Below are positions 1 through 49,532 of a DNA stretch of 64,000 bases, one piece after another. The DNA comes from an uncultured Planctomycetales bacterium (GTDB lineage: Bacteria; Planctomycetota; MHYJ01; JACPRB01). The position numbers were made by a program, and so were the translations under genes. The stretch covers positions 3,451 through 67,450 of the forward strand of contig CAZGKV010000003.1 in NCBI GenBank assembly GCA_964526305.1. The letters are read 5' to 3'. Below the pieces are notes generated by a model. That model was given only the letters and a program-made list of their open reading frames with translations, was not told the origin of the DNA and did no database searches. Position 1 is the first letter of the stretch. Each line of letters opens with the position of its first letter.

Positions 1-2
1 TC

Positions 3-1294: not shown

Positions 1295-1308
1295 ATGGGG
1301 AGAGACGG

Positions 1309-9626: not shown

Positions 9627-9706
9627 GGTCGAGGATGATAGCGCGAGGGCCCACGGCTCGAAACAGAATCCGTGTGGAGGGACCGTGATATCATTGTAGA
9701 AATCGA

Positions 9707-12316
9707 ATGACTGAGGATTCGGGAGATCCCAACGACTCCTTGGAGGAACGATTCCTCGAAGGCATGAGGGATCACGAGCGTTCCCGCCGCCAGGCCGCCC
9801 ATCGATACGAGAAGCTCCAAGAGATCGGACACGGGGGATTCGCCACCGTCTACAAGACCCTCGATCACGAACTCAATCGCACCGTCGCCCTCAAGCAACT
9901 TCGCCACGATCGTGCTCTTCGCTCGGAGGCCCTCCTCCGATTTCGGCGCGAGGCAGAAGTCGCCTCCCGGCTTTCCCATCCCGCGTTGGTCCCAGTCTAT
10001 GACGCCGGCGAGATCGACGGGGCTCCCTTCATCGTCATGGAGCTGGTCGAAGGCGAGCCCTTGGACGCGGTTCTCAAGCGTCGGCATCTGGGACTGCGGG
10101 TTCTCGTGGAACTCCTCGAGAAGGCGGCCCGCGGGGTCGCTCACGCCCACCAGCACGGAATCGTGCACCGAGATCTCAAGCCACAGAACATTCTCGTCAC
10201 TCCCGCCGGGGAACCCAAAGTGGCCGATTTCGGATTGGCGCACCTTCTGGAATCGGACGAGGTGCTCACCCGGACGGGAACGGCCGTCGGGACACCGTCC
10301 TACATGTCGCCGGAGCAGGTCGAAGGGCGCGTCAAGGAGATTTCGACCCGGACCGACGTGTATGCCCTGGGAGCCATCCTCTACGAAATCCTTACAGGAC
10401 GGACTCCGCATCTCGGTCAGACGCCCAAGGAGCTCTACGACAAGATCGTCAGTGACGATCCGGTTCTTCCCCGAGTGATCTCCCCCATCCTCCCCCGAGA
10501 CTTGGAGACCATCTGTCTCAAGGCCTTGGAGAAGAAACCGACGCGCCGGTACGAGACGGCCCAAGAGTTCGCGAACGAGCTCCGGAGATTCCTTCTAGAC
10601 GAGAACATCTTGGCCCGTCCTCCGGGGGTATTCCTTCGAGGCCTGCGATGGACCCGGAAGCATCGTACGCTGATGGGGATCGTCGGAGTGTTTCTTTTCG
10701 CCGCAGCGATCGGAGGAGGGCAGGCGTGGCTCCGAAACGCCGCCCGGAATCGGGATCTCCGGCGCTGGCAGGAGCGTGCCGCGTCGGCCATGGACGCGCA
10801 ACGATGGTCGGAGGCCGCTCGGTACTACGCGGAGGCGCAAAAGCGGGCTCCCGAGGATACGCACCTTGCCATGAAGCAACGAGCGGCCGAGTCGATGGCA
10901 AAGGCCGCTCGGGCTATGGAGCGGGCGACACGCGCCCGGACAATCGCCGTGGAGGAGAACTCGCGGTCCGAACACCCCCGGTCGGCCGCTTTGTCGGCTC
11001 AAGAAGCGGAGGAAGCCGCCCGAGAGGCCCTGGCCCTGGAACCGACGCTCACGGCAGCGAAGACTATCCTGGCCGAAGTCTACTTCTGGAGATTTCAGGG
11101 AGCATGGAAGTCCAAGGATTACGAGGGAAGTGAGGTTTGGGCTCGGCAGTGCCTGAATTACGCTGAGGAGTCGCATCGCGCGCAAATCTACGGTGAGGTG
11201 GAGTTGGCCCCGAATCCCTCGGTAGAACGAGCCTATCTTTTTCGGTACTCGAATCGCGGATCCCGCCAAATCCCTCTCCCCTGCTCGGCCACGGGAGAGG
11301 TTCTCGAGACGGAGATCGCCTCCGTCGAGAGCATTCCTTCCACGGCATCAGAGGAAGCGAAGGCCCGCGTGCGGACCGGGAGCGCCTACCGACTCGACGA
11401 TCTCGCATTCAACGAGGTCCGGTTTCCTCTTCGGCTCATTCCGGGGTCGTATCTAGTCCGACTTCGGCGAGACGGAGCGGTCGAGACCCGCGTGCCGCTC
11501 TTCGTAGGTCCCGGAGATTCGATTCATCTCGAGATTCCCCTGCTCCCCAAGGATGGGTTTTCGGAAGGGTTCATCTACGTTCCCCCGGGGCCGGCGCTCC
11601 TGGGCGGGGACCCCACGGCCGAGCCGATCGAGAGTTCGCGGTTCTCTCCGACGCGCACGATGGTGGCGGGATTCATCCTCATGAAGTTCTCCGTCACGTG
11701 CGCGGACTATCTCCCCTATCTCAACGACCGAAAGCGGCACACGATCGAGGAGGCGGAGCGAAGGATGCCGAAGGATTTCGGGAGTGTTCGCCACTTCCAG
11801 CGGAACGGGGACGCCCTTTCCCTGGGCTGTCAGGGCGGGGATCACGCCCTCGAGGGGCTGCTCCTTCCCGCTGTCGAGGACTTTGCGGGATGGTTCACCC
11901 GAACCCATGGGAATGGGAAGTGGGTCTTCCGGCTCCCAACGGGCAAGGAGTGGGAGAGAGCGGCGCGGGGGGCGGACGGTCGAAATTTTCCCTGGGGGAA
12001 CCGATTCGATCCGGCGCTGGCGGATGCGCGAAGAAAGACGATCTCGCACGACATGATTCGAGGAAGAGCCGGGCCCCGGTTCGGCCTCTTCCCTGGCGAT
12101 GAGTCTCCGTTCGGAGTTCGCGATATGGTCGGGGTGGTCTCCAATTGGCTCGGGACTTCCACGGTGAGCCAGACGATTCGAGAGACCGCGGGCGGTTCGT
12201 ACTCGGAGTTCGAGACTCGGTGGTGTCTCTCGATGCTTCGGAAACAGATGTTCGTGGACGAAAAAAGCTCGTACCCGGGCATCGGCTTCCGTCTCGCGGC
12301 CTCCCTCCCGAAGTGA
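9707..12316 (+). CDS. Ser/Thr protein kinase fused to a C-terminal FGE-sulfatase (SUMF1-like) domain
   Basis: Kinase subdomains are present: glycine loop GHGGFATVYK, VALK, catalytic loop HRDLKPQN, DFG, and SPE. A TM segment follows. The C-terminal region FSVTCADYLPYLND...RLPTGKEWERAARGADGRNFPWGN...GFRLAASL matches the FGE-sulfatase fold. Confidence 0.85.
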   Translation: MTEDSGDPNDSLEERFLEGMRDHERSRRQAAHRYEKLQEIGHGGFATVYKTLDHELNRTVALKQLRHDRALRSEALLRFRREAEVASRLSHPALVPVYDAGEIDGAPFIVMELVEGEPLDAVLKRRHLGLRVLVELLEKAARGVAHAHQHGIVHRDLKPQNILVTPAGEPKVADFGLAHLLESDEVLTRTGTAVGTPSYMSPEQVEGRVKEISTRTDVYALGAILYEILTGRTPHLGQTPKELYDKIVSDDPVLPRVISPILPRDLETICLKALEKKPTRRYETAQEFANELRRFLLDENILARPPGVFLRGLRWTRKHRTLMGIVGVFLFAAAIGGGQAWLRNAARNRDLRRWQERAASAMDAQRWSEAARYYAEAQKRAPEDTHLAMKQRAAESMAKAARAMERATRARTIAVEENSRSEHPRSAALSAQEAEEAAREALALEPTLTAAKTILAEVYFWRFQGAWKSKDYEGSEVWARQCLNYAEESHRAQIYGEVELAPNPSVERAYLFRYSNRGSRQIPLPCSATGEVLETEIASVESIPSTASEEAKARVRTGSAYRLDDLAFNEVRFPLRLIPGSYLVRLRRDGAVETRVPLFVGPGDSIHLEIPLLPKDGFSEGFIYVPPGPALLGGDPTAEPIESSRFSPTRTMVAGFILMKFSVTCADYLPYLNDRKRHTIEEAERRMPKDFGSVRHFQRNGDALSLGCQGGDHALEGLLLPAVEDFAGWFTRTHGNGKWVFRLPTGKEWERAARGADGRNFPWGNRFDPALADARRKTISHDMIRGRAGPRFGLFPGDESPFGVRDMVGVVSNWLGTSTVSQTIRETAGGSYSEFETRWCLSMLRKQMFVDEKSSYPGIGFRLAASLPK

Positions 12317-12438
12317 TTCCTCGCGATCCTCCGTCGCTTCGATCCTTCCGTGGAACCAATCCAAGGAGTGCCCGGTAGGATCGATCTTGCGCCCTTCTCA
12401 TTCTTGGAGCTCCCCTGGAGTGCTTTCGGAAAGCGACG

Positions 12439-13629
12439 TCAAGGAGCATAGGACCGCCGGCGCACCCCATCTCGTACAAGCTCCACCTGGGGGCGCCCCT
12501 CGATGCCCGTCACCGATCGTCCACGAGAGAGAAGGAGCGCTCCCGCGGCCTCCCCGTACCGGTGGCTTCCGTACCCGACGACAATCCGTGCCGGGGAAGT
12601 GCGATGGACTCGTGCCGGCAGCCGCCCCGGATCGCCGGTCAACTCGGTGCCCCAGTACATCAGATTCCCGTGCGCCCAAAGGTCCTCGCGGGTGTGACGA
12701 TCGACCCTGTCTCCGTTCTGAAAGTGCGGGAGTCCCAGAATGTGCCCGATCTCGTGGGCCAAGACATGAGCGCAATACTCGTCGGATCGCGCGTCGGAAA
12801 TCACAAAGCCCGGGGGCAGTCCGATGTCGGTACATCCCGTCATCCGGGTCAGCGTGTAGCCGTGAACGTGTCCGCCGTCGCCGGCGAACGCGCGCACCAG
12901 GTATACATTGAGCGCATCGGGAGTGGGATGCGAACCCATGACGGTCCGGAGGTCTCCACAGTCGAACCGCGTCGGCTCCGCCGGGCCCAGATCCATCGTC
13001 CCGTCATGCCGCGAAGTCTCGACCCGAACGCAGGAGTGTATCGTCGGGCTTGGACGGAAGAACACGCCGGCTTGGGAATAGATCGCGTTGACCCGTCGAA
13101 ACATCAAGTCCAGAGATGCTTGGGAACGAGTCGCGGTCAAGGTGTCGAGCGTCGCCCGGTGGAGCTGGACAGGAACGCTGATCCCGTCATACCGCGCGAC
13201 GGTCAGCCGGGCGACGACCTGCCCCTGGGCAGATTCGAAGTGAAGGTCGAGACGAGTCGGAGAGCCTCCGTCCGCCTCGTTCGTCGCCCGGAGAACGATT
13301 TCGTTCGAGGCGGGTAGAGGCTGCCCTGCTCTCGGTTCGACGAGTTGCGCAATCCGTGGGCCCTCCAAGCTCGGAAAGAGCGGTGCCGAATCCGCCAGTC
13401 GATCCCGAACCACGCGGACACAGATCGGTGGAAACGGATCTCCCGCCGGCGCCGGTTCGCGATTCCATCTGGTGATTCCGATCCTTGGGCCCTTGTCTCC
13501 GGTCGGATCGTGGCCGCATCGTTCGAATTCGATCCGGATCGGATCCGCGGGTCCCTCCGCAGCCCGGGTGAATCGGACCGGCGCGATTCGGTGAAGCGTA
13601 CCCGGGACCAATCGGATTCTGTAGGCCAC
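12439..13629 (-). CDS. zinc metalloprotease, metzincin-like (HExxHxxGxxH)
   Basis: HEIGHILGLPH motif. Start lies 2 nt after the stop of the upstream gene (operon). Confidence 0.65.
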   Translation of the reverse strand: MAYRIRLVPGTLHRIAPVRFTRAAEGPADPIRIEFERCGHDPTGDKGPRIGITRWNREPAPAGDPFPPICVRVVRDRLADSAPLFPSLEGPRIAQLVEPRAGQPLPASNEIVLRATNEADGGSPTRLDLHFESAQGQVVARLTVARYDGISVPVQLHRATLDTLTATRSQASLDLMFRRVNAIYSQAGVFFRPSPTIHSCVRVETSRHDGTMDLGPAEPTRFDCGDLRTVMGSHPTPDALNVYLVRAFAGDGGHVHGYTLTRMTGCTDIGLPPGFVISDARSDEYCAHVLAHEIGHILGLPHFQNGDRVDRHTREDLWAHGNLMYWGTELTGDPGRLPARVHRTSPARIVVGYGSHRYGEAAGALLLSRGRSVTGIEGRPQVELVRDGVRRRSYAP

Positions 13630-13630
13630 G

Positions 13631-14476
13631 TCAGATCTCCGCTCGGGATCTCAGCTGCGACTTCGTCTCGGGAGTCAACTCCGCGCTCGAAATCAGCCCG
13701 TGATCCGCCTGGAAACTCTGGAGCGCATTTTGCGCCCTCGGCGAATCCCGATCGTCGTCGACCAGGGAGTCGTCCCCCTCCGAAACTCGATCCTGGAGGT
13801 GCCCGGTGACGTACCCCAAGATATCCAGGCGCTTCTTCGCACCGGCGTGCGACACCGCGGCGGCTCCGTCCAACGTCTGGACACCCGGATGGAGGTCCAG
13901 CTCGTATTGCGTACCCAGGATGTGTAGCGTGAGGATCTCACTCGGGCGGATGCGAACGGTGACGTCGCCGGCGCCGTTCGTCCTGCCGCGCGCGCGTTCG
14001 GCACCGCCCGGAGAGGGTCCCTCCCGAATCACATACGGAAGATCGGAAATGCCGAGCCCATTCGCATCGCCCGGACAGAGTTGAAATCGCAAACGGATTT
14101 CGTATTCCGCTTCCCCCCCAAGACGTTGATAGACCGGCAAGGGAGTCGGAGAGACCCGTTCGGGAGGAGGAGCCATTCCCCCTACCCGCCGACTCCGACA
14201 CACGCGGATGCGACCCTGGCCAATCTCGCGCGCGACTTCGGCCAAGATCTGCGGACGCGTGAGCCGATGAACCTGAGGAACGCCCAACTCCTGAAGCGCC
14301 CCTCGCAATGCCGGCTCATTGAGAGAAGAAAAACTCGAGGTCAGGAATTGGTTCCGATCGAGAAAGGCCCGCGCCTCCTCCCGAGTGGCCAGGGGCAGCG
14401 GATCGCACCGGTCGGGAGCGGTATCCCTGCGGCCGATCAGGACAAAGGTCTCACCACTGCGGATGTATTGGAACAT
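13631..14476 (-). CDS. hypothetical protein with C-terminal putative peptidoglycan-binding (PG_binding_1-like) domain
   Basis: C-terminal ...QNALQSFQADHGLISSAELTPETKSQL resembles the PGBD consensus. Tightly linked (3-4 nt) to the kinase upstream and the protease downstream. Confidence 0.5.
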   Translation of the reverse strand: MFQYIRSGETFVLIGRRDTAPDRCDPLPLATREEARAFLDRNQFLTSSFSSLNEPALRGALQELGVPQVHRLTRPQILAEVAREIGQGRIRVCRSRRVGGMAPPPERVSPTPLPVYQRLGGEAEYEIRLRFQLCPGDANGLGISDLPYVIREGPSPGGAERARGRTNGAGDVTVRIRPSEILTLHILGTQYELDLHPGVQTLDGAAAVSHAGAKKRLDILGYVTGHLQDRVSEGDDSLVDDDRDSPRAQNALQSFQADHGLISSAELTPETKSQLRSRAEI

Positions 14477-14479: not shown

Positions 14480-16378
14480 TCACTCCCGGATGCCCCACCA
14501 GCGAATCGTCCGATCCGCGCTTCCTGTGGCCAGAATCGTCTTTCGGGGATGGAAAGCGACGGCAACGACTTCGTCTTGATGGCCGCGCAGCGTCTTGATT
14601 TCCCGTCCGTCCGGGAGACTCCAGAGTCGTGCCGTACGATCGGCTCCACCGGAGGCCAAGAGTCTCCCGGAGGGGTGCATGGCGAGCGAATACACGTATC
14701 CGGAATGACCGGTGAGAACTCCCGACGGATTCCCCGAGGGGACGCTCCAAAGCCGGATCGTCCCATCCGCGCTTCCGGACGCCAGGAGCGAGCCCTCCGG
14801 AGTGAAGGCCAACGCGAGAATCAGTCCCGCATGCCCCTGAATCACCCGAGTCGGAGCATTGCTCTTTCCGTCCCAGATGCGAATCTCCTGATCCTGTCCT
14901 CCCGAGACCATCCATTCTCCCTTGGGGCTGACGGCGACCGCAAAGATCGGTTGGGTCCCGGCGCGCCAAGTTTTGACTCCCTTTCCCTCCAGGACATTCC
15001 ACAGAGTGAGATCCAAGTCGCTTCCGCACGTGAGCAGGGTCTTTCCATCCGGGCTGAAGGCCATCGCCGTGAACGAGTTTCCGGTCTTGGAAAGGGAGTG
15101 ACGGACCGAAGTAAAGGGGGCTTCTCGGAGGAGAACTCGATCGTCCTTTCCCGCCGCGGCTAAAAGACGGCCATCCGGGCTGAAGCGGACCGCGTTGACC
15201 CACCCCGCATGTCCCCCCAGACGCCCCCGTTCGCTCCCTGCCTGATCCACCAGCCTCACTTCTTGAAACGTGGCCGCGGCGACGGTATCTCCGTCCCTCG
15301 AAAAGTCCAGGGACTTGATTCCATATTCGAGCGTTACCGGCGCCCGGAGTTCGGCGAACCGATCCGCTTCAGGAACGGCAGGTTTCTCCTGCGGGGGAGG
15401 AACGGGCGGCGCCGGGAAATTCGGTCGCGGACGCGCGAGGAAGTACCCTGCGGGAGCCAAGGCCAGGAGGATCAACGCGGCGACGGCCCAGATCCAACCA
15501 CGACGTCTCCCTGGAGGATTCGATAGCGCAGCTTCGATTCCTGTCCGCAACTCCAGGATGCTCGCGGTGCGCTTCGAACGGTCGTGCGCAAGAGCGGAAG
15601 CGATGACGGAATCCATGCGGGCGTCCACCCGAGATAGGCGTGAAACCGGCTCGAATTGTCCCAAGGGTCTCTTTCCCGTCAAGAGCTCGTAAAGGACAAC
15701 CCCGGCGGCGTACACATCGGCCCGGGCATCCACTTCTCCACCTCCGGTCGACTGCTCCGGGGCCATGTAGTGTGCGGTTCCCAGAAGGTCTCCCGAGCGA
15801 GTAAGGGCGAGCTTCTGACCGGGTTCTTCCTGCAAGCTCGCCAGACCGAAGTCTGCGATCTTGAGTCGCCCCGATCGATCCAAGAGTAGGTTTTCCGGCT
15901 TGATGTCCCGGTGAACGATTCCGGCTTGATGGGCGCACGCCAAGCCGTCGCACAGCTGGAAGATGAAGTGCGCCGCCTCGGCCGGCGGGAGCTTCCCCCC
16001 GGCGATCTTCTCTCGAAGCGTGCTCCCTTCGACCAACTCCGTAACGAGATAGCAGGTGCCTTCCTCACATCCGAAATCATGGACGGTGACGATGTTGGGG
16101 TGTTGGAGCGAGGCGAGCGCTTGAGCCTCACGACGGAAGCGTGCGTTGAAAAGGGGATTCTGCGTTTGGTGGAGGATCTTGAGGGCGACAAGACGGTTGA
16201 GATCCGTTTGTCGCGCCCGGTATACCGTAGCCATGCCCCCCTGCCCTAGGGGCTCCATGACCTCGAGACCGCGGAATCGCGTGCCCGCTGCCACAGCGAC
16301 AACCTGGGGCGCCGCGGTACATTGCGGGCATCGTGAAGCCGCATAGACGGAACCGCAGGTGGAACACGTTTGAATCAC
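14480..16378 (-). CDS. Ser/Thr protein kinase with N-terminal zinc-ribbon, TM segment and C-terminal WD40 beta-propeller
   Basis: CSTCGSVYAASRCPQC zinc ribbon; kinase motifs (GQGGMATVYRA, HRDIKPEN, DFG, APE); seven repeats of the WD40 type (...SPDG..LA.GS.D..I.LW...). Confidence 0.85.
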   Translation of the reverse strand: MIQTCSTCGSVYAASRCPQCTAAPQVVAVAAGTRFRGLEVMEPLGQGGMATVYRARQTDLNRLVALKILHQTQNPLFNARFRREAQALASLQHPNIVTVHDFGCEEGTCYLVTELVEGSTLREKIAGGKLPPAEAAHFIFQLCDGLACAHQAGIVHRDIKPENLLLDRSGRLKIADFGLASLQEEPGQKLALTRSGDLLGTAHYMAPEQSTGGGEVDARADVYAAGVVLYELLTGKRPLGQFEPVSRLSRVDARMDSVIASALAHDRSKRTASILELRTGIEAALSNPPGRRRGWIWAVAALILLALAPAGYFLARPRPNFPAPPVPPPQEKPAVPEADRFAELRAPVTLEYGIKSLDFSRDGDTVAAATFQEVRLVDQAGSERGRLGGHAGWVNAVRFSPDGRLLAAAGKDDRVLLREAPFTSVRHSLSKTGNSFTAMAFSPDGKTLLTCGSDLDLTLWNVLEGKGVKTWRAGTQPIFAVAVSPKGEWMVSGGQDQEIRIWDGKSNAPTRVIQGHAGLILALAFTPEGSLLASGSADGTIRLWSVPSGNPSGVLTGHSGYVYSLAMHPSGRLLASGGADRTARLWSLPDGREIKTLRGHQDEVVAVAFHPRKTILATGSADRTIRWWGIRE

Positions 16379-16451
16379 GTTGTCGGTTCCCCTCCTCGGA
16401 AGCTGATACCCAGTATACTAGCCTCCGGACCATTCTTGTCGAGGAGCGAAC

Positions 16452-18662
16452 ATGACGCTGAATCCGAGTACCGCGGCCCAGTTCTATATCAAACTACGAA
16501 GCGACGCCCTCTCGCGCGACGGCAGTACGCCGCTGCTCGTCACCCATGCCGACGGTAGCGAGGGATTATCGAGGCCCTGGCAATTCACCGTCGAGTTCGT
16601 TTCCCACGATCTCGATGTCGAAGCGATCATGAGTCGCCGAGTCTCGCTTGTCGTCCTCCACAATCTCGGGGAATCCTCGCCCGGGAGACCCAATCTGGTG
16701 GAGCTTCAGTTCAACGGAGTGCCTCTCTCCTTGGAGCATTGCGACAGCGGCTCCTCTGCGGGCACATGGCGGGCGTACCAGATGCTCCTCATTCCCGAAA
16801 TCGCGACTCTTTCCTTCACGATACGATCCCGCGCCTTCGTCGGGAAGACGGCGCCGGAGATCGTCCGCCAAGTCTTGGAAGAGCACGGACTGCGCGAGAC
16901 GGAGCATGAATACGAATTCCGACTTTCGCGCGAGTACCGCTCCCTTCCTCACGTCCTCCAGTATCAGGAATCGGATCTTGCCCTTGTTTCGCGCCTGTTG
17001 GAGCACGAGGGGATCTTCTATTACTTCTCCCAGGCCCGAGGGGACGAGGGTCGAGATACGGTCGTCTTCGGAGACTCCGTGGCAGCCTACCCCAACCCTC
17101 TCCCAGGAGTTCCCTCCACCATCTCTTATCGACCCGCAACCGGAGCGCCCGAGAACGTCGACTGGTGGGAGACTCCCACCGTCTCTTCGTTTCACTACCG
17201 AAGGACGTTTGGTCATGGCATCGTGGAGCTGGAGGACTTCGATCCGCGCACCTTCGTCGCTAGGGTCGAGGGAAACTCCGAAACCCCGCCGAACGCAGGC
17301 ATCAATAGGGCAACGCTGTTCGAGTACGGCAACCTGGCGGAAGGCGAGGTGGACGCGCGTCGACTCCTCGAAACGCGGATCGACGAAATCCGTTCTCGCG
17401 CGAAGAGCTTCGGGGGTAGATCCAACGATCGCACGTTCCGTCCGGGGAAGAAGGTGCGTTTGAGCGATCACTACAAACCGGACTATAACGCAGAGTACCT
17501 CCTGACCGAAATGACGCACGCCTGGACGCAGGAGCTGAGTCTCGCGCCGACGCCAGGGGCCGTCGCTCGGTCCTATGCCAATCAATTCGTTTGTATTCCC
17601 GCGGAGCAGTGTTTCCGGCCGTCCAGATCTACTCCCCGCCCCATCCTTCCTTTGCTCGTCGGGCGCGTCCGTGGACCCGGTTCCGTTCCGAACCTGAATT
17701 CCCAGGGCTCCTATCAGGTCGAACTTCCGTTTCAAGTCGGTGATGAGCGAGCGAGCCAAACGGTAACGATGACCAAGGCAGAGCCGGGGGCCGGGCCCAA
17801 TCGCCAGCACTTTCCCCTCCTGCCCGATTCCGCCGTCTTGGTCCAATACCTTCACGGGGAGGCCAATTCCTGCACCCCGATCATCACCGGAGCGGCCCAC
17901 TGGCTGGGCCACCCGAGTCCGACCGTGGACGAGAACAACACCCAATACCGCATGCGCATGGCCAACGGTGTCGAATGGACCTTCGACGACGGCGGCGGGC
18001 AGCACATCCGAATCCACTGTCCGACGGAAAACGCCACGCTCCATTTGGGGGCCGAGCGGGAGGGAGTCGATCCCGGGGCGTCCATCACGACGACCGCCTC
18101 AGGTGAATTCCTCGCGATGGATCGCATCGCGCTCGTGTGCGGCGTCCGAGACCGAGACGGACTTCAACAGGTTTACGGAACCATGACTACGGCCATCAAT
18201 GAAATCGTCGACGGCCTCCAAGCGGATGTCCACGCCGGAAACTCCGTTTCACCGACGCCCCCACGGCCGAATACCGAGGGAAAGAAGAAGGCTTTCGTGG
18301 GAGGAGAAGTGGTCTTGGTGGGCGCTACCCATGCCGTCGGAGTCGTGGCGTCGGGAGAATCGGGAACCTGCGAAATCGCCGCGAACAGTACGGGAGTCTA
18401 CGGAGATTCGTTTCTGGTCCTTTCCGGCGCAGCGGTCGGCATCAGCGCGGACAGCGTGTTTCAGGTAACGACATCCGCCGGACACTTGACGCTCCAATCA
18501 GCCACCATGGCCAGCATCAAGGCGGTCCAGAAGATCCACCTTCTTTGCGGCCCAAGCCAGATTTCTCTGGAAGCCGACAAGCTGATCCTGGCGGCCCCGA
18601 AGGTCGTCGTTGCGGCGGCCGATTTCGTCTCCACTGTTCCTCCCCGGGTTGGCTCTCCATGA
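16452..18662 (+). CDS. vgrG: VgrG-like spike protein (T6SS TssI / phage baseplate hub gp27-gp5-like)
   Basis: RBS GAGGAGCG. N-terminal ...EGLSRPWQFTVEFVSHDLDVEAIMSRRVSLVV..., ...RAFVGKTAPEIVRQVLEEHGL..., ...YQESDLALVSRLLEHEGIFYYF..., VTMTKAEPG and a C-terminal beta-helix-like GxV repeat region match conserved VgrG blocks. Confidence 0.75.
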   Translation: MTLNPSTAAQFYIKLRSDALSRDGSTPLLVTHADGSEGLSRPWQFTVEFVSHDLDVEAIMSRRVSLVVLHNLGESSPGRPNLVELQFNGVPLSLEHCDSGSSAGTWRAYQMLLIPEIATLSFTIRSRAFVGKTAPEIVRQVLEEHGLRETEHEYEFRLSREYRSLPHVLQYQESDLALVSRLLEHEGIFYYFSQARGDEGRDTVVFGDSVAAYPNPLPGVPSTISYRPATGAPENVDWWETPTVSSFHYRRTFGHGIVELEDFDPRTFVARVEGNSETPPNAGINRATLFEYGNLAEGEVDARRLLETRIDEIRSRAKSFGGRSNDRTFRPGKKVRLSDHYKPDYNAEYLLTEMTHAWTQELSLAPTPGAVARSYANQFVCIPAEQCFRPSRSTPRPILPLLVGRVRGPGSVPNLNSQGSYQVELPFQVGDERASQTVTMTKAEPGAGPNRQHFPLLPDSAVLVQYLHGEANSCTPIITGAAHWLGHPSPTVDENNTQYRMRMANGVEWTFDDGGGQHIRIHCPTENATLHLGAEREGVDPGASITTTASGEFLAMDRIALVCGVRDRDGLQQVYGTMTTAINEIVDGLQADVHAGNSVSPTPPRPNTEGKKKAFVGGEVVLVGATHAVGVVASGESGTCEIAANSTGVYGDSFLVLSGAAVGISADSVFQVTTSAGHLTLQSATMASIKAVQKIHLLCGPSQISLEADKLILAAPKVVVAAADFVSTVPPRVGSP

Positions 18663-18690
18663 TCCCCAATCCTGGGGTATCCTTGGAGAC

Positions 18691-19923
18691 ATGAGAAACA
18701 GCGTTCGATGGCTCTTCATCCTCCTCCTCGCTACCGGCCTCCCGGCCGAGGAGACGCAAGTCGCGCTCAAGTCCGGTGAGAAGCTCGAGGGGCGGTTCTC
18801 GGCCGACGCGGAGGGCGTGATCCTCCTCGATGCGGGCCAGCAGAGAAAAGTGCCCTGGAGCGATGTGACGGAGATCCGCGGTCTGCTCGATCAGCCTCCT
18901 TCCGATGGGGAGCGGGAGGCGTACAAAGAAAAGCGATCCGCTGCGAGCACGGTAGACGATTGGTCGGCGCTGGGTCGATGGTGCACCCGGTATGGAATGG
19001 CTCCGGAAGCCGCGGAGGCCTTCGACGAAGCCGTGAAGCTCGATCCGGACAACAAGGTCCTTCGACGAAATGCCGGGTACGCCCAGGTCGAGGGCGCGTG
19101 GAGGAAAGGAAGCGACCTCTTCGCGGAGTGGAAGAAGGATGTCGACCTGCGAGATCCTGAGGCGCTTCTCGCTCTTGCGGACCGGTGCGCCGAGAACACT
19201 CTCTGGGACTACCAACGGCGGTGTGTCACCGCGGCCGTGGTGCTGAGGAAGGATCACCCTCAGGCGCTACTGCGGTTCAAGCCGACGACGGCGAATTCGT
19301 TCCGCCCATCGGTTGCGCTGTTCCCTCCGCTCAAGGGGTTGGTGTGGGCTTGGCCCGACAAATGTGGCCACCATTCCAAGCACGGCTACATGACCTTCGC
19401 GCTCGACCTGATCCTCGTGGATCAGCGTGGAAACCACTATCGCGATTCGGGCTGGGAGAACCACGACTACCTGGGGTGGAACGCGCCCATCTACGCCGTC
19501 GCGGACGGAACCGTCACGGACGCGCGAGATCATTTCGACGACGAACCGCCTCTCAAGGGGAGGAACAACGGGGATGCGGCCAACCATCTATCGATCCGAT
19601 GCGGAAACACCTTGGTTTTCCATCAGCACCTCAAGAAGGGTTCGCTGAAGGTCAAGACCGGCGATGCGGTGCGTCGCGGCCAGGAAGTCGCCCGAGTCGG
19701 GAACTCGGGGAACGCCTCCTATCCTCATCTCCACTTCGTCGCCTACCACTGGTTTGAGTTCGAAGGCGCATCCGACTGGCTCTCCGTTCCCTTCGCGCTC
19801 GACGACTACGAGATCGCCTTCTTGAAGCCTCAGGATCCCGGTCCCGTCAAGCGCGTCGGAGTGGCCTGCCGAAATGCCGTACCTCGCGAGGGTTGGATCA
19901 TGAGGTGGGCCGGGCCGAAGTAG
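18691..19923 (+). CDS. secreted M23 (LytM/lysostaphin-type) metallopeptidase with N-terminal domain of unknown function
   Basis: Start placed at ATG 18691, with signal peptide MRNSVRWLFILLLATGLPAEE; the ORF track begins at 18610 inside vgrG. M23 motifs: HHSKHGY...FALD, GAPIYAVADGTV, and GNSGNASYPHLHF (HxH). Confidence 0.8.
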   Translation: MRNSVRWLFILLLATGLPAEETQVALKSGEKLEGRFSADAEGVILLDAGQQRKVPWSDVTEIRGLLDQPPSDGEREAYKEKRSAASTVDDWSALGRWCTRYGMAPEAAEAFDEAVKLDPDNKVLRRNAGYAQVEGAWRKGSDLFAEWKKDVDLRDPEALLALADRCAENTLWDYQRRCVTAAVVLRKDHPQALLRFKPTTANSFRPSVALFPPLKGLVWAWPDKCGHHSKHGYMTFALDLILVDQRGNHYRDSGWENHDYLGWNAPIYAVADGTVTDARDHFDDEPPLKGRNNGDAANHLSIRCGNTLVFHQHLKKGSLKVKTGDAVRRGQEVARVGNSGNASYPHLHFVAYHWFEFEGASDWLSVPFALDDYEIAFLKPQDPGPVKRVGVACRNAVPREGWIMRWAGPK

Positions 19924-20015: not shown

Positions 20016-20711
20016 ATGAGGCATTGGACCACGTTAGCCGCGCTCGCAACCATGATGGGCGCCGCCGCCGCACAGGAGGACGCGGCTTCCGAGCTCGGCA
20101 AGGCCGGAGCGAAGTCCCAGGAGTGGAAGTCCTATTCGTTCAAGATTGCCTCCAAGACGGAGGGAATGCCCCAGCGAGGCGGGGGACAGAACCCGGGGGA
20201 ACGGACGACCGAGGGAGAGTACGTCGCCGAGAAGGGCCTCCACGGGAAAGCGGGGGAAAGCGAGGTCTACAAGAAGGGAAGCAAGACGGCGGTCAAGGGC
20301 CGCGACGGAAAGTGGGCGGCCCCTGAGGGAGGCGGGCGGCGCGGAGGTCGCGGCTTGTCCGGCCTCACCGCCCCCCACGAGACCTTCAAGGAAATCGAGA
20401 AGCATTTCAAGAAGGTCGAGAAGACGGCGGACGGCGACGCGGCCGTCTACTCGGGCGAGCTCACCGCGGACGGCATCGCCAAGCTCGGCGGCGGAATGGG
20501 CCGGATGCGCGAGGGCGGCGAATCCTCCGGCACCGCCAAGGTGTACGTGGACGCTTCGGGAGAAATCACCAAGCTCGAGGTGAACACCAAGATCAAGGCG
20601 AAGTTCCAAGAGCGCGAGGTCGAAATCACGACGGCCCGCACCATCGAAGTCTCCAATCTCGGGAAGGCCGACTTCGAGATCCCCGAGGAGGTGAAAAAGC
20701 TCCTCGAGTAG
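20016..20711 (+). CDS. secreted Lys/Gly-rich hypothetical protein
   Basis: RBS GGAGAA. Signal peptide MRHWTTLAALATMMGAAAAQ. Low-complexity K/G/E-rich mature region. Confidence 0.55.
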   Translation: MRHWTTLAALATMMGAAAAQEDAASELGKAGAKSQEWKSYSFKIASKTEGMPQRGGGQNPGERTTEGEYVAEKGLHGKAGESEVYKKGSKTAVKGRDGKWAAPEGGGRRGGRGLSGLTAPHETFKEIEKHFKKVEKTADGDAAVYSGELTADGIAKLGGGMGRMREGGESSGTAKVYVDASGEITKLEVNTKIKAKFQEREVEITTARTIEVSNLGKADFEIPEEVKKLLE

Positions 20712-20771: not shown

Positions 20772-21323
20772 ATGCTCGCGTCCGTGGCTGAGGCCGAGAC
20801 CGATTCCAACGACGAGACCTTGCTCGCCCGCGCGGCCGCGGGGGATCGCGAGTCGTTTCGCCTTCTCCACGAGCGCCATCGCAGGCGCGTGTTTCAGATC
20901 GCGTATCGGGTGACGGGCAACGCCGACGACGCGGAGGAGCTGACGCAGGAGACGTTTCTCACGATCTACCGCGAAGCCCAGACGTTCCAGGGAAGGGCGC
21001 GGTTCACGACGTGGCTGACGAGCATCGCTCTCAACAAGAGCATCAACCTCGCCAAGCAGCGACAGGGGCGGTTCTCCCTGCTTCGCCGCTTTTTCGGGAA
21101 GCCCCGGGAATCGGTTGCGGTCCCGTCCGATGCGGCTCAGGGAATCCTCGATCGCGTGGCCCCGGCCTACCGCGCGATCCTGACCCTGCGCTATGTCATG
21201 GGCTATTCGTACGAGGAGGTCGCCCAGACTTTGGGCTGCCCGCTCGGAACGGCCAAATCGAAGTTGTTCCAGGCGCACCTGGCCGTCCGCCGCGCCTTGG
21301 AAGGGAAAGGAGTCGACGAATGA
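20772..21323 (+). CDS. ECF (sigma-70 family, sigma-24-type) RNA polymerase sigma factor
   Basis: Region 2 (...ELTQETFLTIYREAQTF...RFTTWLTSIALN) and region 4 (YRAILTLRYVMGYSYEEVAQTLGCPLGTAKSKL). Confidence 0.85.
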   Translation: MLASVAEAETDSNDETLLARAAAGDRESFRLLHERHRRRVFQIAYRVTGNADDAEELTQETFLTIYREAQTFQGRARFTTWLTSIALNKSINLAKQRQGRFSLLRRFFGKPRESVAVPSDAAQGILDRVAPAYRAILTLRYVMGYSYEEVAQTLGCPLGTAKSKLFQAHLAVRRALEGKGVDE

Positions 21324-21700
21324 CCTGTTCGGCTTGCGAAGAACGGCTTCTCGATTGGCTGGACGGATCGCGCGAACCGATGGTCGAAGAGCACCTGGCC
21401 GCTTGCGCACCGTGTCGTGGGCTCTTCGAGTCGGCGCGATCCACGGCAGAGACCTTGAGATCCGCCCCGGCCGTTGTCCCACGAATCCGGCCCCGCCTCC
21501 GGTGGCGCTGGCCTGCCGCCGCGGCGGCGGTTGCGGTCATCGCCGGCGCGGGATTCCTCGCGACTCGTCGGGACGAATCCCCGCCCAAGCGCCTTCGCAT
21601 CCAAGTCGTCGATGCCGCCAATCGTGTTGAACCGGGTCACGTCGACGCTGTCTTGGACTCGATCGAAGGCGGGCCGCTGGCGGATCGAGGCTCGCGATGA
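21320..21700 (+). CDS. anti-sigma factor, zinc-finger (zf-HC2) type, single TM
   Basis: ATGA overlap with the sigma gene. CSACEERLLDWLDG...HLAACAPC matches the zf-HC2 motif. A hydrophobic segment WPAAAAAVAVIAGAGFLA follows. Confidence 0.6.
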   Translation: MTCSACEERLLDWLDGSREPMVEEHLAACAPCRGLFESARSTAETLRSAPAVVPRIRPRLRWRWPAAAAAVAVIAGAGFLATRRDESPPKRLRIQVVDAANRVEPGHVDAVLDSIEGGPLADRGSR

Positions 21701-22608
21701 AGCGGTGGGGGTTGATCGTCCTGATTCTGGGATGCCTTACAGCCACCGGGTTGGCGGTCGCCGCGAAGGTCCGCCGGGACAACGCGCGGAATCTCCTCTC
21801 CTCGATGGTCGCGGCCGAAGAGTCCGGAACGTACACCGCCGAGGTGTCCCTGCGGTATCAACGCGGGGATTCGGCCAAGTCGCATCGGATCCGAGTGATC
21901 CGAGTGTCGGGACAGACCTTTACGGAACCGCTCGATCCCTCCTCGGAGCGTCGTCCGCGGTGGCGCCATCGCGGGCCGATTACGGATGTGGACCTTCTCC
22001 TGGCAAACTACTCGGTCGCACTCGAGGGGGAAGAGCCGATCGCAGGGCGACCGGCGCGCCGGGTCGCCGTCCGACCGCGCCATCCCGACCGTCCGACCTG
22101 CACCCTCTGGATCGACCGAGAGCGATCGTTCCTCCTCAAGTACGAGACGAAGGACCGGACCTACGAGACGAACGCCATCCTGTTCGAGGCGAAAGCTCCC
22201 GAGCGGTCGGACAGCGGAAGATCCCGCGGACGCCGGGAAGTCTCCTTGTCCGAGCTGCCCCAGGCGGTGTCGTTCCCCGTCGCCGTTCCTTCCTGGCTCC
22301 CCAAGGGATTTCGCCTGCAACGTGCGAGCGTGATGAAATGGGAGTCGCACGAGTCGCTTCATCTTCTGTACACGGACGGCCTCGCGACCCTGTCCGTCTT
22401 CGAGAGCCCTGAGGGATCGGAGTGGGGCCGCCGCTGGGAGTGGTTGAAGAAGAAGGGCGGCCCGTGTTCCGCGGGCAAGGTTTCCCGCGGGGGTTGGACG
22501 ACGCTCACGATCGCCCTTGAGGGCGTGGTGGTGACCGTCGCCGGATCGATCTCCGAAAAGGAACTCGTCGATCTTCTCGAGTCGATGGACGTGCGGCGAA
22601 GGGGCTGA
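21697..22608 (+). CDS. MucB/RseB-like (LolA-fold) periplasmic sigma-regulatory protein
   Basis: ATGA overlap with the anti-sigma gene. Signal peptide present. The N-terminal ...SGTYTAEVSLRYQRGDSAKSHRIRVIRVSGQTFTEPLD... pattern resembles the RseB N-domain. Operon position after the sigma and anti-sigma genes supports the call. Confidence 0.45.
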   Translation: MKRWGLIVLILGCLTATGLAVAAKVRRDNARNLLSSMVAAEESGTYTAEVSLRYQRGDSAKSHRIRVIRVSGQTFTEPLDPSSERRPRWRHRGPITDVDLLLANYSVALEGEEPIAGRPARRVAVRPRHPDRPTCTLWIDRERSFLLKYETKDRTYETNAILFEAKAPERSDSGRSRGRREVSLSELPQAVSFPVAVPSWLPKGFRLQRASVMKWESHESLHLLYTDGLATLSVFESPEGSEWGRRWEWLKKKGGPCSAGKVSRGGWTTLTIALEGVVVTVAGSISEKELVDLLESMDVRRRG

Positions 22609-22612: not shown

Positions 22613-25600
22613 CTACTTCGAGCGGGGACCCACGAACTCCTCCTCGAGCGGCCCGATGATCTTGACGTGACCCGCGCCGGATTCCAGCGCATCGGCCAAG
22701 GCCGACGCCTCCAACTTCGAGAGCGACCCCGTGATCCAGATGGAGCCCCCGAACTTCGCTGCCTGGACTGTGGGCATCGACAGGATCCGTCCCTCCATCA
22801 GGATAGCGATCAGGCCCTTCGGCACTTGCTCATGCAGGACCTCGGTCGATCGATCAAACCGGCGGGCGCCCTCTTCGGTTAGCTCCGCGGAGAGATACCA
22901 CCCCTCATGGCTCCCCTCTTTGGCCACCGCGATCGCGATGTCGTTTCCCGTTACGCTGGGCTCCCGCAATAGCAGGATCTTCTTTCCACGAATGTGATCG
23001 TACTCCCCTTCAAGGACTTGCTCGCAATCGACCACGGCGTAGCCCTCGGGGACGGTTCCGGTCTTCCGCCACTCCTCATGCAGCTCGCGAGTCGCCACGG
23101 GCCGGAATTCCAGGTTGGGCGTCGGCTTTCCCGCGGGACGCAGCCGCTCTTTGATTCGATCGAACCCGGTACGATCCACGTTCGCCATGCGGACCCGGAC
23201 CCGACCATCTTCTTCCAACGTAATCAGAGGATCGTGGGGAAGCACTCCCTGAACACGAGCCCGAAGTCGTTGGAGCAGGAGCTCAGGAATCTGTCCCTTA
23301 CGCGAAGGCTCACCCTTGGGCCAGAGGATCTTGTATGTCAATCGCGAATAGGCGTCGTACTTCGCCACGATGGCGCGAACGGTAGGCTCTTGACGTACGA
23401 GGTCGAAGTCCGCATCCAGCCGGTCAAGGCCCAACTCGAAGGCGCGCTCCAGCATCGCCGCGATCCTCGGAATGAGCGCCGTCCGATCCGCACCTCGCTC
23501 GATATCTCGGCATCGCGCCTTGGCATACTCGACGCAGCCCTGCCGGACTCGATCGTCTCCGGGCTTGAACGGGATCTCGACAAACCACGCTCCCCACTGG
23601 TCGCGCAAGAGTTGCTCCACCCACCCGAATCGGGCCCACGGATGATCCAGGTTGTCCGATTTCCAAGCCTCGAGATCTGCCTTGCTCCCCGCCCCATCCT
23701 CGAGATAGATCTTTCGAACCCCCGCGCGCAGGAGACGGGCCTTGCCCGACTTTGGCTCCAGGGACACGGCACGATCCAGATCTTCGATCACCTGGTTTCG
23801 GTTCGGCAAGCGGTCCGGCGGACCCCACTCCTCCGTTTGAAGTAATGCCCGTACGTAATACGGCTCGGGCTCTTTGGGAAAGGCACGGAGGCTCGAATCG
23901 ATATCTTCTCGCGCGAGCGATCGAAGGCCCATCTGCCACAGGTATTGCGCGCGCCGGAGCCGCTCCCTTCCGCGCTCCCCGGTGAGCGTGACCGCAGCTT
24001 CCTCGTCTTCGAGCGCGGCTCCACACTCTCCCAACCCCCACAGGACTTTCGCCCGTTCCCCATGGCAACGCGCGTCGTTCGGTTCGACTATCAGGGCCCG
24101 ATCCAGGAACGCCCTGCGGGATCGTACCTCGGCCATCGTGTCCTTCGTAGGATTCGGGCTCACCAACATCCCCTTGAGGAGGAGGGCATCGAAGTAGACC
24201 GGATTCTCCTTCAAGGACGTGTCCAAGCCTCGATCCAAGGCTTCGTGAATCTTCAATATCCGCGCCTCCTCGGGACGAGACCAAAACCCGGGATCGTTCT
24301 GGAGTATTCCGCATGCTTTGGCGAACTCCAGCACCGACCGCAGCAGGATCGTTCGCTCCTTCTGCCCGGATCTCGCCTCCAGGAAAACCAGGTCCTTCTC
24401 CAGGGGCCCGCTCGGGAGGGAGGAAAACGCCCAACTCTGGATCGCTCGAAGGAGCCATTCCCTCACTCTGATGAGCACGCGTCGATAGCGGGCATCGTCC
24501 AGATCGGGAGACAGTTCGAGCGCCTGGGTGTAGTCCGCGACCGCCGCTTCCGTCCCCCCTAACGCCTCGTGCACTCGGCCGCGCCAGTAGTGCCGATCGG
24601 CCGTGCTGCCTTGAGTTTCGAGCGTACGATCGAGAGACGCTCGGGCCTCCTCGAGCCGCTCCCGACGTTCGGCGCGCTCCGCATGTCCCGTCCCGAATCG
24701 GGCCGATTCGAGCACCATCTGCACCCGGGCCAGGGCGAACGCATCACCGAGGTCGACGTTGAGCTTCTCGACGAGGCGATTGACCCGGATTCCCGTGCCG
24801 GCCAGCGCAGCAGAGATTTCTGCGTTCACCCACCGCATCGCGAAGTAACCGCAGCCCACGATCGCGATGAGGAGCGCGGCCGTCATGCCCAGGATGGTCG
24901 CCCTGCGGCGCGCCCACCGCGCCGCTTTCCGCGGAAGACCGGCCGGCCTGGCCATGATCGGTCGCCCATCGAGATGGCGCCTCAGATCGTCGGCCAACTC
25001 CCGGGCCGTCGCATAGCGTGCCGACTTTTCCTTTTCGAGCGCCTTGAGACAGATCGCCTCGACCTCGCGCGGCACGGCCCGATTGAGCTTGGAGGGGCGG
25101 CTCGGTTCCTCCGTCGCGATCTTCCGAAAGATCTCCATCACCGTTTCTCCCGAGTGTGGAGGTCGGCCGGTCAGGATCTCGTAGAGGATCGCGCCGAGCG
25201 AATAAACGTCCGCCCGCGCGTCGAGATCCTTCGATCCCGCCGCCTGCTCGGGACTCATGTAGGGCGGGGTCCCCAGGACGTTTCCCGTCCCCGTCGCTCC
25301 GCCTTCGGTCGTCAGGCTCTTCGCGATCCCGAAGTCCAGGATCCGCGGTTCGCCGTTCTTATCGATCATGACGTTTGTGGGCTTGAGGTCGCGATGGATC
25401 ACGCCGTTCTCGTGGGCATGGTGGACGGCGCTTGCGATTTTCTCGACCAGCCCCAGCGCCTCCCGAGATGCCCGCTCCCGATCCCGGAAGTACTCGGATA
25501 GGGTGACTCCTTCGACGAGCTCCATGCTGTAGAAATAGGTTCCGTCGTGGCTGTCGACCTCGTGGATCGGAACGATGTTGGGATGGCGAAGTTTGGCGGC

Positions 25601-25912
25601 CATCCGGGCCTCGCGCAGGAATCGTTCCACCAACTCCGCCGGCGCTCCCTGGCTCGGAAGTATCTTGAGCGCTACGGTTCGGTTGAGTCCCTTTTGCCGG
25701 GCTTTGTAGACGATCCCCATTCCCCCCGTTCCGAGGACCCCGAGGAGCACGTAGTCTCCGAATTCGGACCCGACCGAGGGGACGTCCGCCTTCGGGGCGT
25801 CCAGCATCGCGGAGAGCAGGCATTTCGGACAGGCGCCGTCGAAGCGGGCTTCCGCTTCGCGCGCGGAGACCGCGACGCCGCATCGAGGACACGTCCGAGC
25901 CACGAGTTCCAT
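22613..25912 (-). CDS. Ser/Thr protein kinase with N-terminal zinc ribbon, TM segment, TPR region and C-terminal domain of unknown function
   Basis: CPRCG...CPKC; kinase motifs (GTGGMGIVYKA, HRDLKPTN, DFG, SPE); TM helix ILGMTAALLIAIVGCGYF; TPR-like repeats. About 350 aa at the C-terminus are unassigned. Confidence 0.85.
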   Translation of the reverse strand: MELVARTCPRCGVAVSAREAEARFDGACPKCLLSAMLDAPKADVPSVGSEFGDYVLLGVLGTGGMGIVYKARQKGLNRTVALKILPSQGAPAELVERFLREARMAAKLRHPNIVPIHEVDSHDGTYFYSMELVEGVTLSEYFRDRERASREALGLVEKIASAVHHAHENGVIHRDLKPTNVMIDKNGEPRILDFGIAKSLTTEGGATGTGNVLGTPPYMSPEQAAGSKDLDARADVYSLGAILYEILTGRPPHSGETVMEIFRKIATEEPSRPSKLNRAVPREVEAICLKALEKEKSARYATARELADDLRRHLDGRPIMARPAGLPRKAARWARRRATILGMTAALLIAIVGCGYFAMRWVNAEISAALAGTGIRVNRLVEKLNVDLGDAFALARVQMVLESARFGTGHAERAERRERLEEARASLDRTLETQGSTADRHYWRGRVHEALGGTEAAVADYTQALELSPDLDDARYRRVLIRVREWLLRAIQSWAFSSLPSGPLEKDLVFLEARSGQKERTILLRSVLEFAKACGILQNDPGFWSRPEEARILKIHEALDRGLDTSLKENPVYFDALLLKGMLVSPNPTKDTMAEVRSRRAFLDRALIVEPNDARCHGERAKVLWGLGECGAALEDEEAAVTLTGERGRERLRRAQYLWQMGLRSLAREDIDSSLRAFPKEPEPYYVRALLQTEEWGPPDRLPNRNQVIEDLDRAVSLEPKSGKARLLRAGVRKIYLEDGAGSKADLEAWKSDNLDHPWARFGWVEQLLRDQWGAWFVEIPFKPGDDRVRQGCVEYAKARCRDIERGADRTALIPRIAAMLERAFELGLDRLDADFDLVRQEPTVRAIVAKYDAYSRLTYKILWPKGEPSRKGQIPELLLQRLRARVQGVLPHDPLITLEEDGRVRVRMANVDRTGFDRIKERLRPAGKPTPNLEFRPVATRELHEEWRKTGTVPEGYAVVDCEQVLEGEYDHIRGKKILLLREPSVTGNDIAIAVAKEGSHEGWYLSAELTEEGARRFDRSTEVLHEQVPKGLIAILMEGRILSMPTVQAAKFGGSIWITGSLSKLEASALADALESGAGHVKIIGPLEEEFVGPRSK

Positions 25913-26669: not shown

Positions 26670-27004
26670 CGGGGCGTTATATCCGCGAGCGACCCCGATT
26701 TCTAGGCCGGATGCGCCGGGAGGAATTCGTAGAGCCGCTCCCAGTATCCCGGAAGGCTGCGCAGACTCGCTTCCCGCTCCCGAAGCCATTCCTGCGCTTC
26801 CCGGCGGATTTCCCAGGGAAGCTCGGGAAGCCGAGCGCGGAGACGCACGAGCGTCAGGAGCTCGAGAGCGAAGCGTTCCGGACTCATCCGTTCTCTTCTT
26901 TCGGTTTCTCCCTGGGAGAGTTTGGGGAATTCTGACCCAGACGATTTCCCGCGGATTCCGTACAAGAATTTTGGCACATGTTCTACTAAGATGATGTATA
27001 ACAA

Positions 27005-28084: not shown

Positions 28085-28099
28085 TACAACCCCCCTTCC

Positions 28100-49528: not shown

Positions 49529-49532
49529 TGCG

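Follow-up and report, generated by a model that had tools for sequence, protein, structure and literature searches.

The question raised by this locus is whether a spike gene and the peptidase gene behind it form a toxin-delivery pair of a type VI secretion system (T6SS). In the 64-kb stretch of contig CAZGKV010000003.1 from an uncultured Planctomycetales bacterium considered here (the window, meaning the whole of the DNA that was analyzed), a vgrG gene is followed after 28 nt, on the same strand, by a gene for an M23 (LytM-type) peptidase, and an operon encoding a kinase and two further proteins diverges from its upstream side (Table 1). A previous reading made from the sequence alone regarded the peptidase as a classical VgrG-linked cargo and the divergent operon as scenery. 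On balance, we favor a different arrangement, namely, an auxiliary ("orphan") vgrG island whose likeliest cargo is the pair formed by the last two products of the divergent operon, a 281-residue protein (g281) and a 396-residue metallopeptidase (g396), with the M23 peptidase exported by the Sec route and probably not carried by the spike, and with the T6SS core encoded elsewhere.

The product of the vgrG gene exceeds the cutoffs of two curated NCBIfam models, TIGR03361 for TssI/VgrG (206.1 bits; cutoff, 186.35) and TIGR01646 (146.9 bits; cutoff, 121.8), and matches PF05954 (Phage_GPD) over residues 37 to 361 with an E value of 1.8e-59. It presents a gp27-like and gp5-OB core (residues ~25 to 517) followed by a putative C-terminal beta-helix-like region, which contains a Pro/Lys-rich loop (residues ~600 to 625) and a weak match to DUF2345 (residues 674 to 724; E value, 0.01 to 0.07); the Pfam scan of the protein gave no match to PF04717, PF06715, or PF22178. 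Several homologues align over 89 to 97% of its length, and the best non-self relatives, at 32 to 34% identity, are VgrG proteins in every case. Among them, P0005 (locus L013) is encoded immediately 3' of a TssA-TssB-TssC-Hcp-TssE-TssF-TssG-ClpV run, P0004 (locus L015) has a gene for a DUF2169-pentapeptide adaptor next downstream, and P0002 is a member of a tandem vgrG pair. A scan of GTDB representative genomes with the protein gave hits of no more than 25 to 27% identity, in unrelated MAGs (metagenome-assembled genomes). Since both curated models are exceeded and the nearest relatives come from canonical T6SS loci or their immediate surroundings, we regard the gene, as judged from its sequence, as an auxiliary T6SS-i spike gene that is intact, in agreement with the VgrG call of the sequence-only reading.

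The remainder of the apparatus is not encoded nearby. Precomputed and new Pfam scans, covering essentially every gene of the window, revealed no member of the T6SS core, PAAR, DUF4123, DUF1795, DUF2169, phage, or extracellular contractile injection system (eCIS) families. Likewise, phmmer searches (--max) with TssA/B/C, Hcp, TssE/F/G, ClpV, and PAAR queries gave no match among the open reading frames (ORFs) of at least 50 amino acids (aa) in the window, and such genes were not found in the 2.6 kb past its left end or in the 10 kb past its right end. Over the window and ~13 kb of flanking DNA, the sequence-only reading is therefore borne out in its statement that genes of the T6SS core, of PAAR proteins, and of adaptors are missing. 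The phage-tail-like or eCIS context that it also contemplated is not: no such genes occur in these ~77 kb, the VgrG passes a T6SS-specific model, and its relatives are T6SS linked.

A second spike locus was encountered in the same Joint Genome Institute (JGI) sample as the window. There, in L015 (positions 3540 to 14128), a gene for an 872-aa VgrG, preceded by that of an FHA-GAF-sigma-54 activator, is followed by genes for a DUF2169-pentapeptide protein and then a 616-aa pure pentapeptide-repeat protein. The tetranucleotide z-score profile of L015 correlates with that of the window at 0.977, which can be compared with 0.979 to 0.985 for chunks within the window, 0.973 for another contig established as part of the window's genome, and -0.23 to 0.90 for other loci. 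Because the composition of L015 equals that of the window, the organism probably carries at least two vgrG loci, as is typical of T6SS-bearing genomes, and we infer that a core T6SS is present elsewhere in the genome.

The evidence on the cargo comes from the divergent operon. The g396 protein carries the motif H292-E-I-G-H296-I-L-G-L-P-H302 and, as a Met-turn candidate, L323-M324; in 60 aligned family members, H292, E293, H296, and H302 are invariant, and the Leu-Met dipeptide is nearly so. Compared with known structures, the family profile matched trimerelysin II (E value, 2.9e-8 over 138 positions), ulilysin (4e-5), and adamalysins, and 17 of the 60 family members match Reprolysin_3. An N-terminal hydrophobic segment is present in none of these 60 proteins and in none of the g281-type partners. 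In g281, a LysM-like N-terminal motif is followed by a beta domain and by a C-terminal PG_binding_1-like domain. No Pfam or NCBIfam model covers either g396 or g281, the latter showing a weak match to PF01471.

Far from being scenery, these two genes recur beside vgrG or PAAR genes in other lineages. Among the matches listed, a pair of g281- and g396-type genes is linked to vgrG or PAAR in all four informative loci (L013, L021, L022, and L023), the locus of the window itself and P0240, on a contig of 1.6 kb, having been left out as uninformative. Two of the four (L013 and L021) contain T6SS core genes, two (L021 and L022) have a PAAR gene directly before the pair, and their base composition is very different. 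In L013 (GC content, 66%), the pair is repeated three times directly 3' of the vgrG gene of a T6SS cluster, with tblastn E values of 6.5e-18 for g396 and 1.4e-10 for g281. The gene order TssE-F-G-ClpV-VgrG in L021 (GC content, 48%) continues with a PAAR protein, the pair, and a HEAT-repeat gene, and in L022 (GC content, 71.5%), a PAAR-PG_binding_1 protein precedes the pair and a HEAT-repeat gene. In L023, from an Acidobacteria metagenome-assembled genome (MAG), an orphan vgrG and a LysM/PG_binding_1 gene are convergent with the pair and a gene for a 255-aa protein, among housekeeping genes. The homology of g281 extends to the PG_binding_1 proteins of 155 to 166 aa encoded before each metzincin gene in L013 and L021 (tblastn E values, 1.4e-10 and 1e-5). 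As for the breadth of the family, a word-based search returned two g396 relatives, a scan of metagenomes with the g396 alignment returned at least two loci, and an exhaustive profile search returned 299 representatives, which come without genomic context.

A cassette can be recognized in these loci (L013:12373-20430, L021:8358-11941, L022:5298-9455, and L023:314-5868), built from a protein of the PAAR or LysM type that ends in PG_binding_1, the PG_binding_1 protein of 155 to 166 aa, the metzincin of ~390 aa, and a HEAT-repeat protein of 255 to 285 aa; the unit of pair plus HEAT-repeat gene occurs three times in L013. The HEAT-repeat gene takes the third position, after the metzincin gene, in L013, L021, and L022, and the 255-aa third product of L023 is weakly similar. 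These HEAT-repeat partners have no signal peptide, so that a function in the cytoplasm, in immunity or as chaperones, is conceivable; the gene may well have nothing to do with immunity.

Because a signal-less protease and a signal-less PG_binding_1 protein beside vgrG or PAAR genes constitute the classical signature, the pair reads as T6SS cargo, with g396 as a candidate toxin and g281 as a protein that may serve the metzincin as adaptor or co-effector. The PG_binding_1 fold is also that of matrixin pro-domains, so that g281 could be an inhibitor or an adaptor rather than a wall-binding module. The cassette has the appearance of one for T6SS effectors that is not yet described; a full-text literature search found no published description of a metzincin/PG_binding_1 family, and it is plausible that the metzincin/PG_binding_1(/HEAT) module represents a new T6SS effector family.

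The gene that occupies the usual cargo position tells a different story. Its product matches PF01551 (Peptidase_M23) with an E value of 3.1e-12, which exceeds the cutoff, and a GGAG sequence lies 4 to 7 nt 5' of its start codon. The N terminus, MRNSVRWLFILLLATGLPA followed by EE, displays two Arg residues and then an 11-residue hydrophobic core with a mean Kyte-Doolittle value of 2.37, in which a signal peptide of the Sec type may be recognized. On these points, i.e., the M23 assignment, the spacing of 28 nt, and the Sec-type signal, the sequence-only reading was right. The AlphaFold2 model of the protein (predicted local distance difference test [pLDDT] score, 84.9) comprises a signal-like helix (residues 2 to 14), a small beta domain (22 to 63), a TPR-like helical domain (72 to 203, with weak Pfam matches to TPR at residues 88 to 133), and the M23 domain (216 to 406). 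The best Foldseek matches are ShyA, EnvC, StM23, DipM, Csd1/2, LytM, and lysostaphin, with M23 structures at E values of 1e-7. In an alignment of 62 sequences, no variation is seen at D239, H313, H346, and H348, and at least 90% keep H227; the enzyme looks active on this basis. The spacing of the first zinc ligands, H227-x11-D239, is atypical with respect to the canonical HxxxD; we take it to be reminiscent of M23A enzymes such as LasA.

The hydrophobic N-terminal segment is a family trait, found in 57 of 62 members. The three full-length relatives (31 to 33% identity and 94 to 95% coverage), from marine MAGs labeled Planctomycetes and belonging to two lineages, have housekeeping genes as neighbors (metallophosphoesterase, MoaE/ThiS, and ribonucleotide reductase), and no vgrG gene lies on their contigs of 5 to 22 kb. 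Conversely, no M23 gene occurs in the related vgrG loci L013, L015, L017, L021, and L023. Pfam and NCBIfam searches gave no match to MIX, FIX, DUF3289, or LysM in the protein. Effectors of T6SSs are loaded in the cytoplasm. According to a survey of vgrG-linked effectors, a signal peptide had until then been reported for no T6SS effector (PMC6833914), and the caution voiced in the sequence-only reading, that such a signal is atypical for a T6SS effector, was justified. Its description of the peptidase as classical VgrG-linked cargo finds no support. Since the family bears signals, its full-length members lie in housekeeping contexts, the modeled fold matches periplasmic endopeptidases, and related vgrG loci lack an M23 gene, the peptidase is probably not VgrG cargo but a bystander, or a helper, that leaves the cytoplasm via Sec. 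The adjacency of the two genes is confirmed as an observation, far beyond chance; most likely, their pairing is coincidental or regulatory, rather than that of a spike with its cargo.

In the arrangement that we favor, g281 and g396 would be made in the cytoplasm and loaded on the VgrG/PAAR tip, with g281 serving as an adaptor or co-effector, and both would be fired into target cells, where g396 would be the toxin. The analysis shows the identity of the domains, the conservation of the catalytic residues, the contrast in signal peptides, and the recurring linkage of the metzincin pair to vgrG or PAAR; that g396 is loaded on this particular VgrG, and that it is toxic to a target, we infer. The M23 peptidase, in turn, would be exported via Sec into the periplasm of the producer and would act there as a peptidoglycan endopeptidase similar to ShyA and MepM, its N-terminal TPR-like domain being probably regulatory. 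In function, it would either stand apart from the T6SS or belong with the envelope cluster encoded further downstream (g231, ECF sigma factor, anti-sigma factor, and RseB-like protein; Table 1), and its co-transcription with vgrG would probably be owed only to the 28-nt spacing.

Several points weigh against this explanation. No T6SS core gene was shown in the ~77 kb read around the locus. Neither a PAAR gene nor a counterpart of the HEAT-repeat gene was found in the window (the best E value of the profile search for the latter was 1.1), and the pair module is for this reason incomplete or differently organized here. The g281 and g396 genes lie on the strand opposite to vgrG, behind a kinase gene, whereas in L013 and L021 the pair is downstream of vgrG. 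The AlphaFold2 model of g396, built on a three-sequence alignment, is too poor to use (pLDDT, 46). The context comparison for the M23 peptidase rests on three full-length relatives of two lineages. Lastly, vgrG and the M23 gene, on one strand and 28 nt apart, are likely to be co-transcribed, as the genes of a spike and its cargo usually are.

This last point leads to the possibility that the M23 peptidase is VgrG cargo after all, i.e., an endopeptidase delivered to rivals, for which the signal-bearing g231 would provide periplasmic immunity and whose own signal would be bypassed, or whose cytoplasmic pool would be loaded. We consider it unlikely. It is true that the gene lies immediately 3' of vgrG with no space for a terminator, that M23 domains are known in vgrG-linked effectors of Acinetobacter and Enterobacter, that all catalytic residues are conserved, that the gene of a small exported protein (g231) comes next, in a position like that of an immunity gene, and that there is one report of signal-bearing azurin exported by a T6SS from a cytoplasmic pool (PMC6907878). 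However, the signal-like N terminus is kept throughout most of the family, the full-length relatives never adjoin vgrG, no T6SS marker or adaptor domain was found in the protein, and no homologue of g231 was found beside the M23 relatives; furthermore, the M23 effectors known from T6SSs are twice as large as this protein and carry LysM domains, which it does not have. By analogy with azurin, it is possible to imagine a dual routing, in which a periplasmic pool would be exported via Sec and a cytoplasmic pool would travel on the spike, with g231 as an exported immunity protein, but we regard this as highly improbable; if true, it would provide the first signal-bearing antibacterial T6SS effector.

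It is also rather improbable, in our judgment, that the M23 peptidase is an accessory periplasmic hydrolase of the T6SS, which would open the sacculus of the producer for the apparatus or the spike in the manner of TagX or of recruited MltE. Such a role would account both for the Sec signal and for a transcript probably shared with vgrG. A precedent is TagX, whose gene lies among those of a T6SS: this peptidase faces the periplasm, is not itself secreted, and can be needed for biogenesis of the system (PMC5061870). The TPR-like N-terminal domain could recruit or autoinhibit, as in the case of ShyA. Nevertheless, enzymes of this kind are encoded in core clusters and not beside an orphan vgrG, the five related vgrG loci considered above contain no M23 gene, and relatives of the peptidase occur in contexts devoid of T6SS genes.

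Finally, it is very unlikely that the genome has no T6SS and that its VgrG was left behind as a relic or belongs to another contractile system (a prophage baseplate hub or an eCIS). It is true that the ~77 kb hold no core gene and that the protein is divergent, sharing no more than 34% identity with any other, and without the Phage_base_V and Gp5_trimer_C matches present in most homologues. However, its ORF is intact, full length, and above the TIGR03361 cutoff, phage or eCIS genes were not found in the same ~77 kb, the nearest relatives are T6SS-i VgrG proteins (with P0005 directly after its core run), homologues of T6SS- or PAAR-linked cargo genes adjoin it, and the same genome probably has a second vgrG-DUF2169 locus.

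Table 1. Features of the vgrG island and of the adjoining genes in the window
Feature	Positions	Strand	Basis or remarks
g396, 396-aa metzincin-type zinc metallopeptidase, no signal peptide	12439-13629	-	HExxHxxxxxH
g281, 281 aa, no signal peptide	13631-14476	-	Weak PF01471 at residues 214-274
Ser/Thr kinase-WD40	14480-16294	-	Pkinase and WD40, precomputed Pfam; kinase also NCBIfam
Divergent intergenic region, 157 nt, kinase operon to vgrG	16295-16451		Presumed to hold both promoters
vgrG (tssI)	16452-18662	+	736 aa; stop TGA at 18660-18662
M23 (LytM-type) zinc peptidase, signal-like N terminus	18691-19923	+	410 aa; ATG at 18691; PF01551
g231, 231 aa, Lys/Gly/Glu-rich, signal-like N terminus MRHWTTLAALATMMGAAAA followed by QE	20016-20711	+	No Pfam/NCBIfam match
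Extracytoplasmic function (ECF) sigma factor	20772-21323	+	Sigma70_r2/r4_2, precomputed Pfam
zf-HC2 anti-sigma factor	21320-21700	+	Weak zf-HC2 match
MucB/RseB-like protein	21697-22608	+	MucB_RseB, precomputed Pfam; weak RseB NCBIfam

Downstream of the M23 gene, the trio of ECF sigma factor, anti-sigma factor, and RseB-like protein is encoded on the strand shared by vgrG, the M23 gene, and g231, with short or overlapping junctions. Since the exported g231 and this trio follow on the same strand, maintenance of the producer's envelope is the simplest reading of the role of the M23 peptidase. g231 is a weak candidate for an immunity protein or for a member of an envelope-stress cluster. That it is a conserved partner of the M23 or vgrG module was considered and rejected, because no homologue occurs near the M23 relatives or in other vgrG loci.

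The divergent kinase/PG-binding/metzincin operon described in the sequence-only reading is real, all three genes being on the minus strand. The kinase gene is the first, separated by 3 nt from g281, which is in turn separated by 1 nt from g396, and its product has an N-terminal cytoplasmic kinase domain, one transmembrane segment, and a WD40 beta-propeller. It is possible to hypothesize, by analogy, that the kinase could exert a PpkA-like control of the T6SS; its adjacency means little, because kinases are very common in this genome. Six Ser/Thr kinase genes lie in the 64 kb (9707-12316, 14480-16294, 22613-25912, 34064-37183, 39055-42240, and 53726-56707), with TPR repeats fused to most of the kinases, FGE-sulfatase to one, and WD40 to one. 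In the intergenic region, a sigma-70-like site was noted on the minus strand (16442-16415), which is a consensus match only, and a sigma-54-like TGGAAC-N4-TTGA (16360-16375) was discarded because its spacing is wrong. Shuffled sequence gave more terminator-like sites than the real one, and neither the promoter scan nor the terminator scan was informative.

The island is not compositionally foreign: the tetranucleotide correlation of its 7.5 kb is 0.948, and the GC content at third codon positions (GC3), 0.68 to 0.76, is within the range of the genes of the window. The same genes are also found on contigs of JGI sample 3300022563, in an ENA assembly, in a Logan assembly, and on a 133.7-kb contig of an NCBI/GEM MAG. 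Positions 1 to 9700 and 9700 to 64000 of the window correspond to two JGI contigs (12.3 and 65.1 kb), which form a single sequence in the longer NCBI/GEM assembly alone; the two meet at ~9.6 to 9.7 kb, with a DUF1295/PEMT-like gene on one side and a kinase gene on the other.

Elsewhere in the window, ECF sigma factors are encoded at 20772-21323, 25956-26669, and 42221-42964, and metabolic genes and a sigma-54 activator are also present. The Planctomycete-type ECF sigma family PF07638 is represented, which, like the best hits of the M23 peptidase in Planctomycetes, gives no more than a hint of the taxon. Four large ORFs of 827 to 1,064 aa with a high GC3 (26702-29239 and 43031-45514 on the minus strand and 46334-49528 and 49533-52055 on the plus strand) have no Pfam match at an E value of 1e-3; the tandem pair at 46334-52055 adjoins a gene for a GAF-sigma-54 activator (52111-53766). 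A 98-aa exported protein (62944-63240, minus strand), extremely rich in Cys, Gly, and Lys, with CxC and CxxC repeats and a lipoprotein-like N terminus (LALGTGC), is encoded directly upstream of lgt. Two proteins are eukaryote-like, namely, an RCC1-repeat protein of 747 aa with 12 repeats (31742-33985, minus strand) and a Kelch beta-propeller protein of 844 aa (3265-5799, plus strand).

It follows from the preferred explanation that the locus is a routine auxiliary vgrG locus, for which the label "VgrG-M23 effector pair" should be avoided; going by adjacency alone, a Sec-exported, housekeeping-type peptidase would be misannotated as a toxin. As a useful by-product, the association of a small PG_binding_1 protein with a metzincin of ~390 aa, whose family comprises ~300 sequence clusters, is worth a systematic survey.

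Comparable islands include the auxiliary clusters of Vibrio cholerae. With the auxiliary vgrG islands of Acinetobacter baumannii (PMC6833914), the locus shares a stand-alone vgrG away from the core, signal-less candidate toxins with envelope-related domains, and housekeeping surroundings. Unlike in those islands, the genes of the candidate cargo run opposite to vgrG and follow that of a Ser/Thr kinase, no recognizable immunity, PAAR, or DUF4123/DUF1795/DUF2169 gene is present in the window, and the usual cargo slot is taken by a Sec-exported enzyme.

An M23 domain directly after vgrG is also a feature of the vgrG-linked M23 effectors, such as Tpe4/14/18/24/29 of A. baumannii and the DUF3289-M23 proteins of Enterobacter. 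However, the known vgrG-linked M23 effectors are LysM proteins of 670 to 850 aa (PMC6833914), carrying LysM/NlpD or DUF3289 modules and no signal peptide, whereas the protein considered here has 410 aa, a signal-like N terminus, a TPR-like domain, and relatives that are not vgrG linked. Its best structural matches are the periplasmic endopeptidases ShyA, MepM, and Csd (PDB 6ue4, 6u2a, 2gu1, and 5j1l), which are likewise Sec-exported multidomain proteins with a C-terminal M23 domain and conserved catalytic residues; it differs from them in its N-terminal domains, a small beta domain plus TPR-like helices, and in having H227-x11-D239 in place of HxxxD. With the T6SS-associated L,D-endopeptidase TagX (PMC5061870), which is itself not secreted, the M23 peptidase would share its substrate, peptidoglycan, its exposure to the periplasm, and a gene that accompanies those of a T6SS. 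Nevertheless, TagX is a membrane-anchored enzyme of the VanY/LAS family found in core clusters, whereas here a soluble M23 enzyme stands beside an orphan vgrG and is missing from the related loci.

With regard to g396, metallopeptidase toxins of T6SSs have been described in the C-terminal domain of Pseudomonas aeruginosa VgrG2b, for which there is a periplasmic immunity protein (PMC6899460), in Rhs-M91 (PMC13556075), and in Tox-MPTase (PMC3482391). The candidate shares with them the association of an HExxH zinc peptidase with a VgrG/PAAR spike. Different from them, g396 is a free-standing metzincin (HExxHxxxxxH plus Met-turn) of ~390 aa that no Pfam or NCBIfam model describes; a small PG_binding_1 protein accompanies it in every case, and elsewhere, though not in the window, a signal-less HEAT-repeat protein is encoded after the pair.

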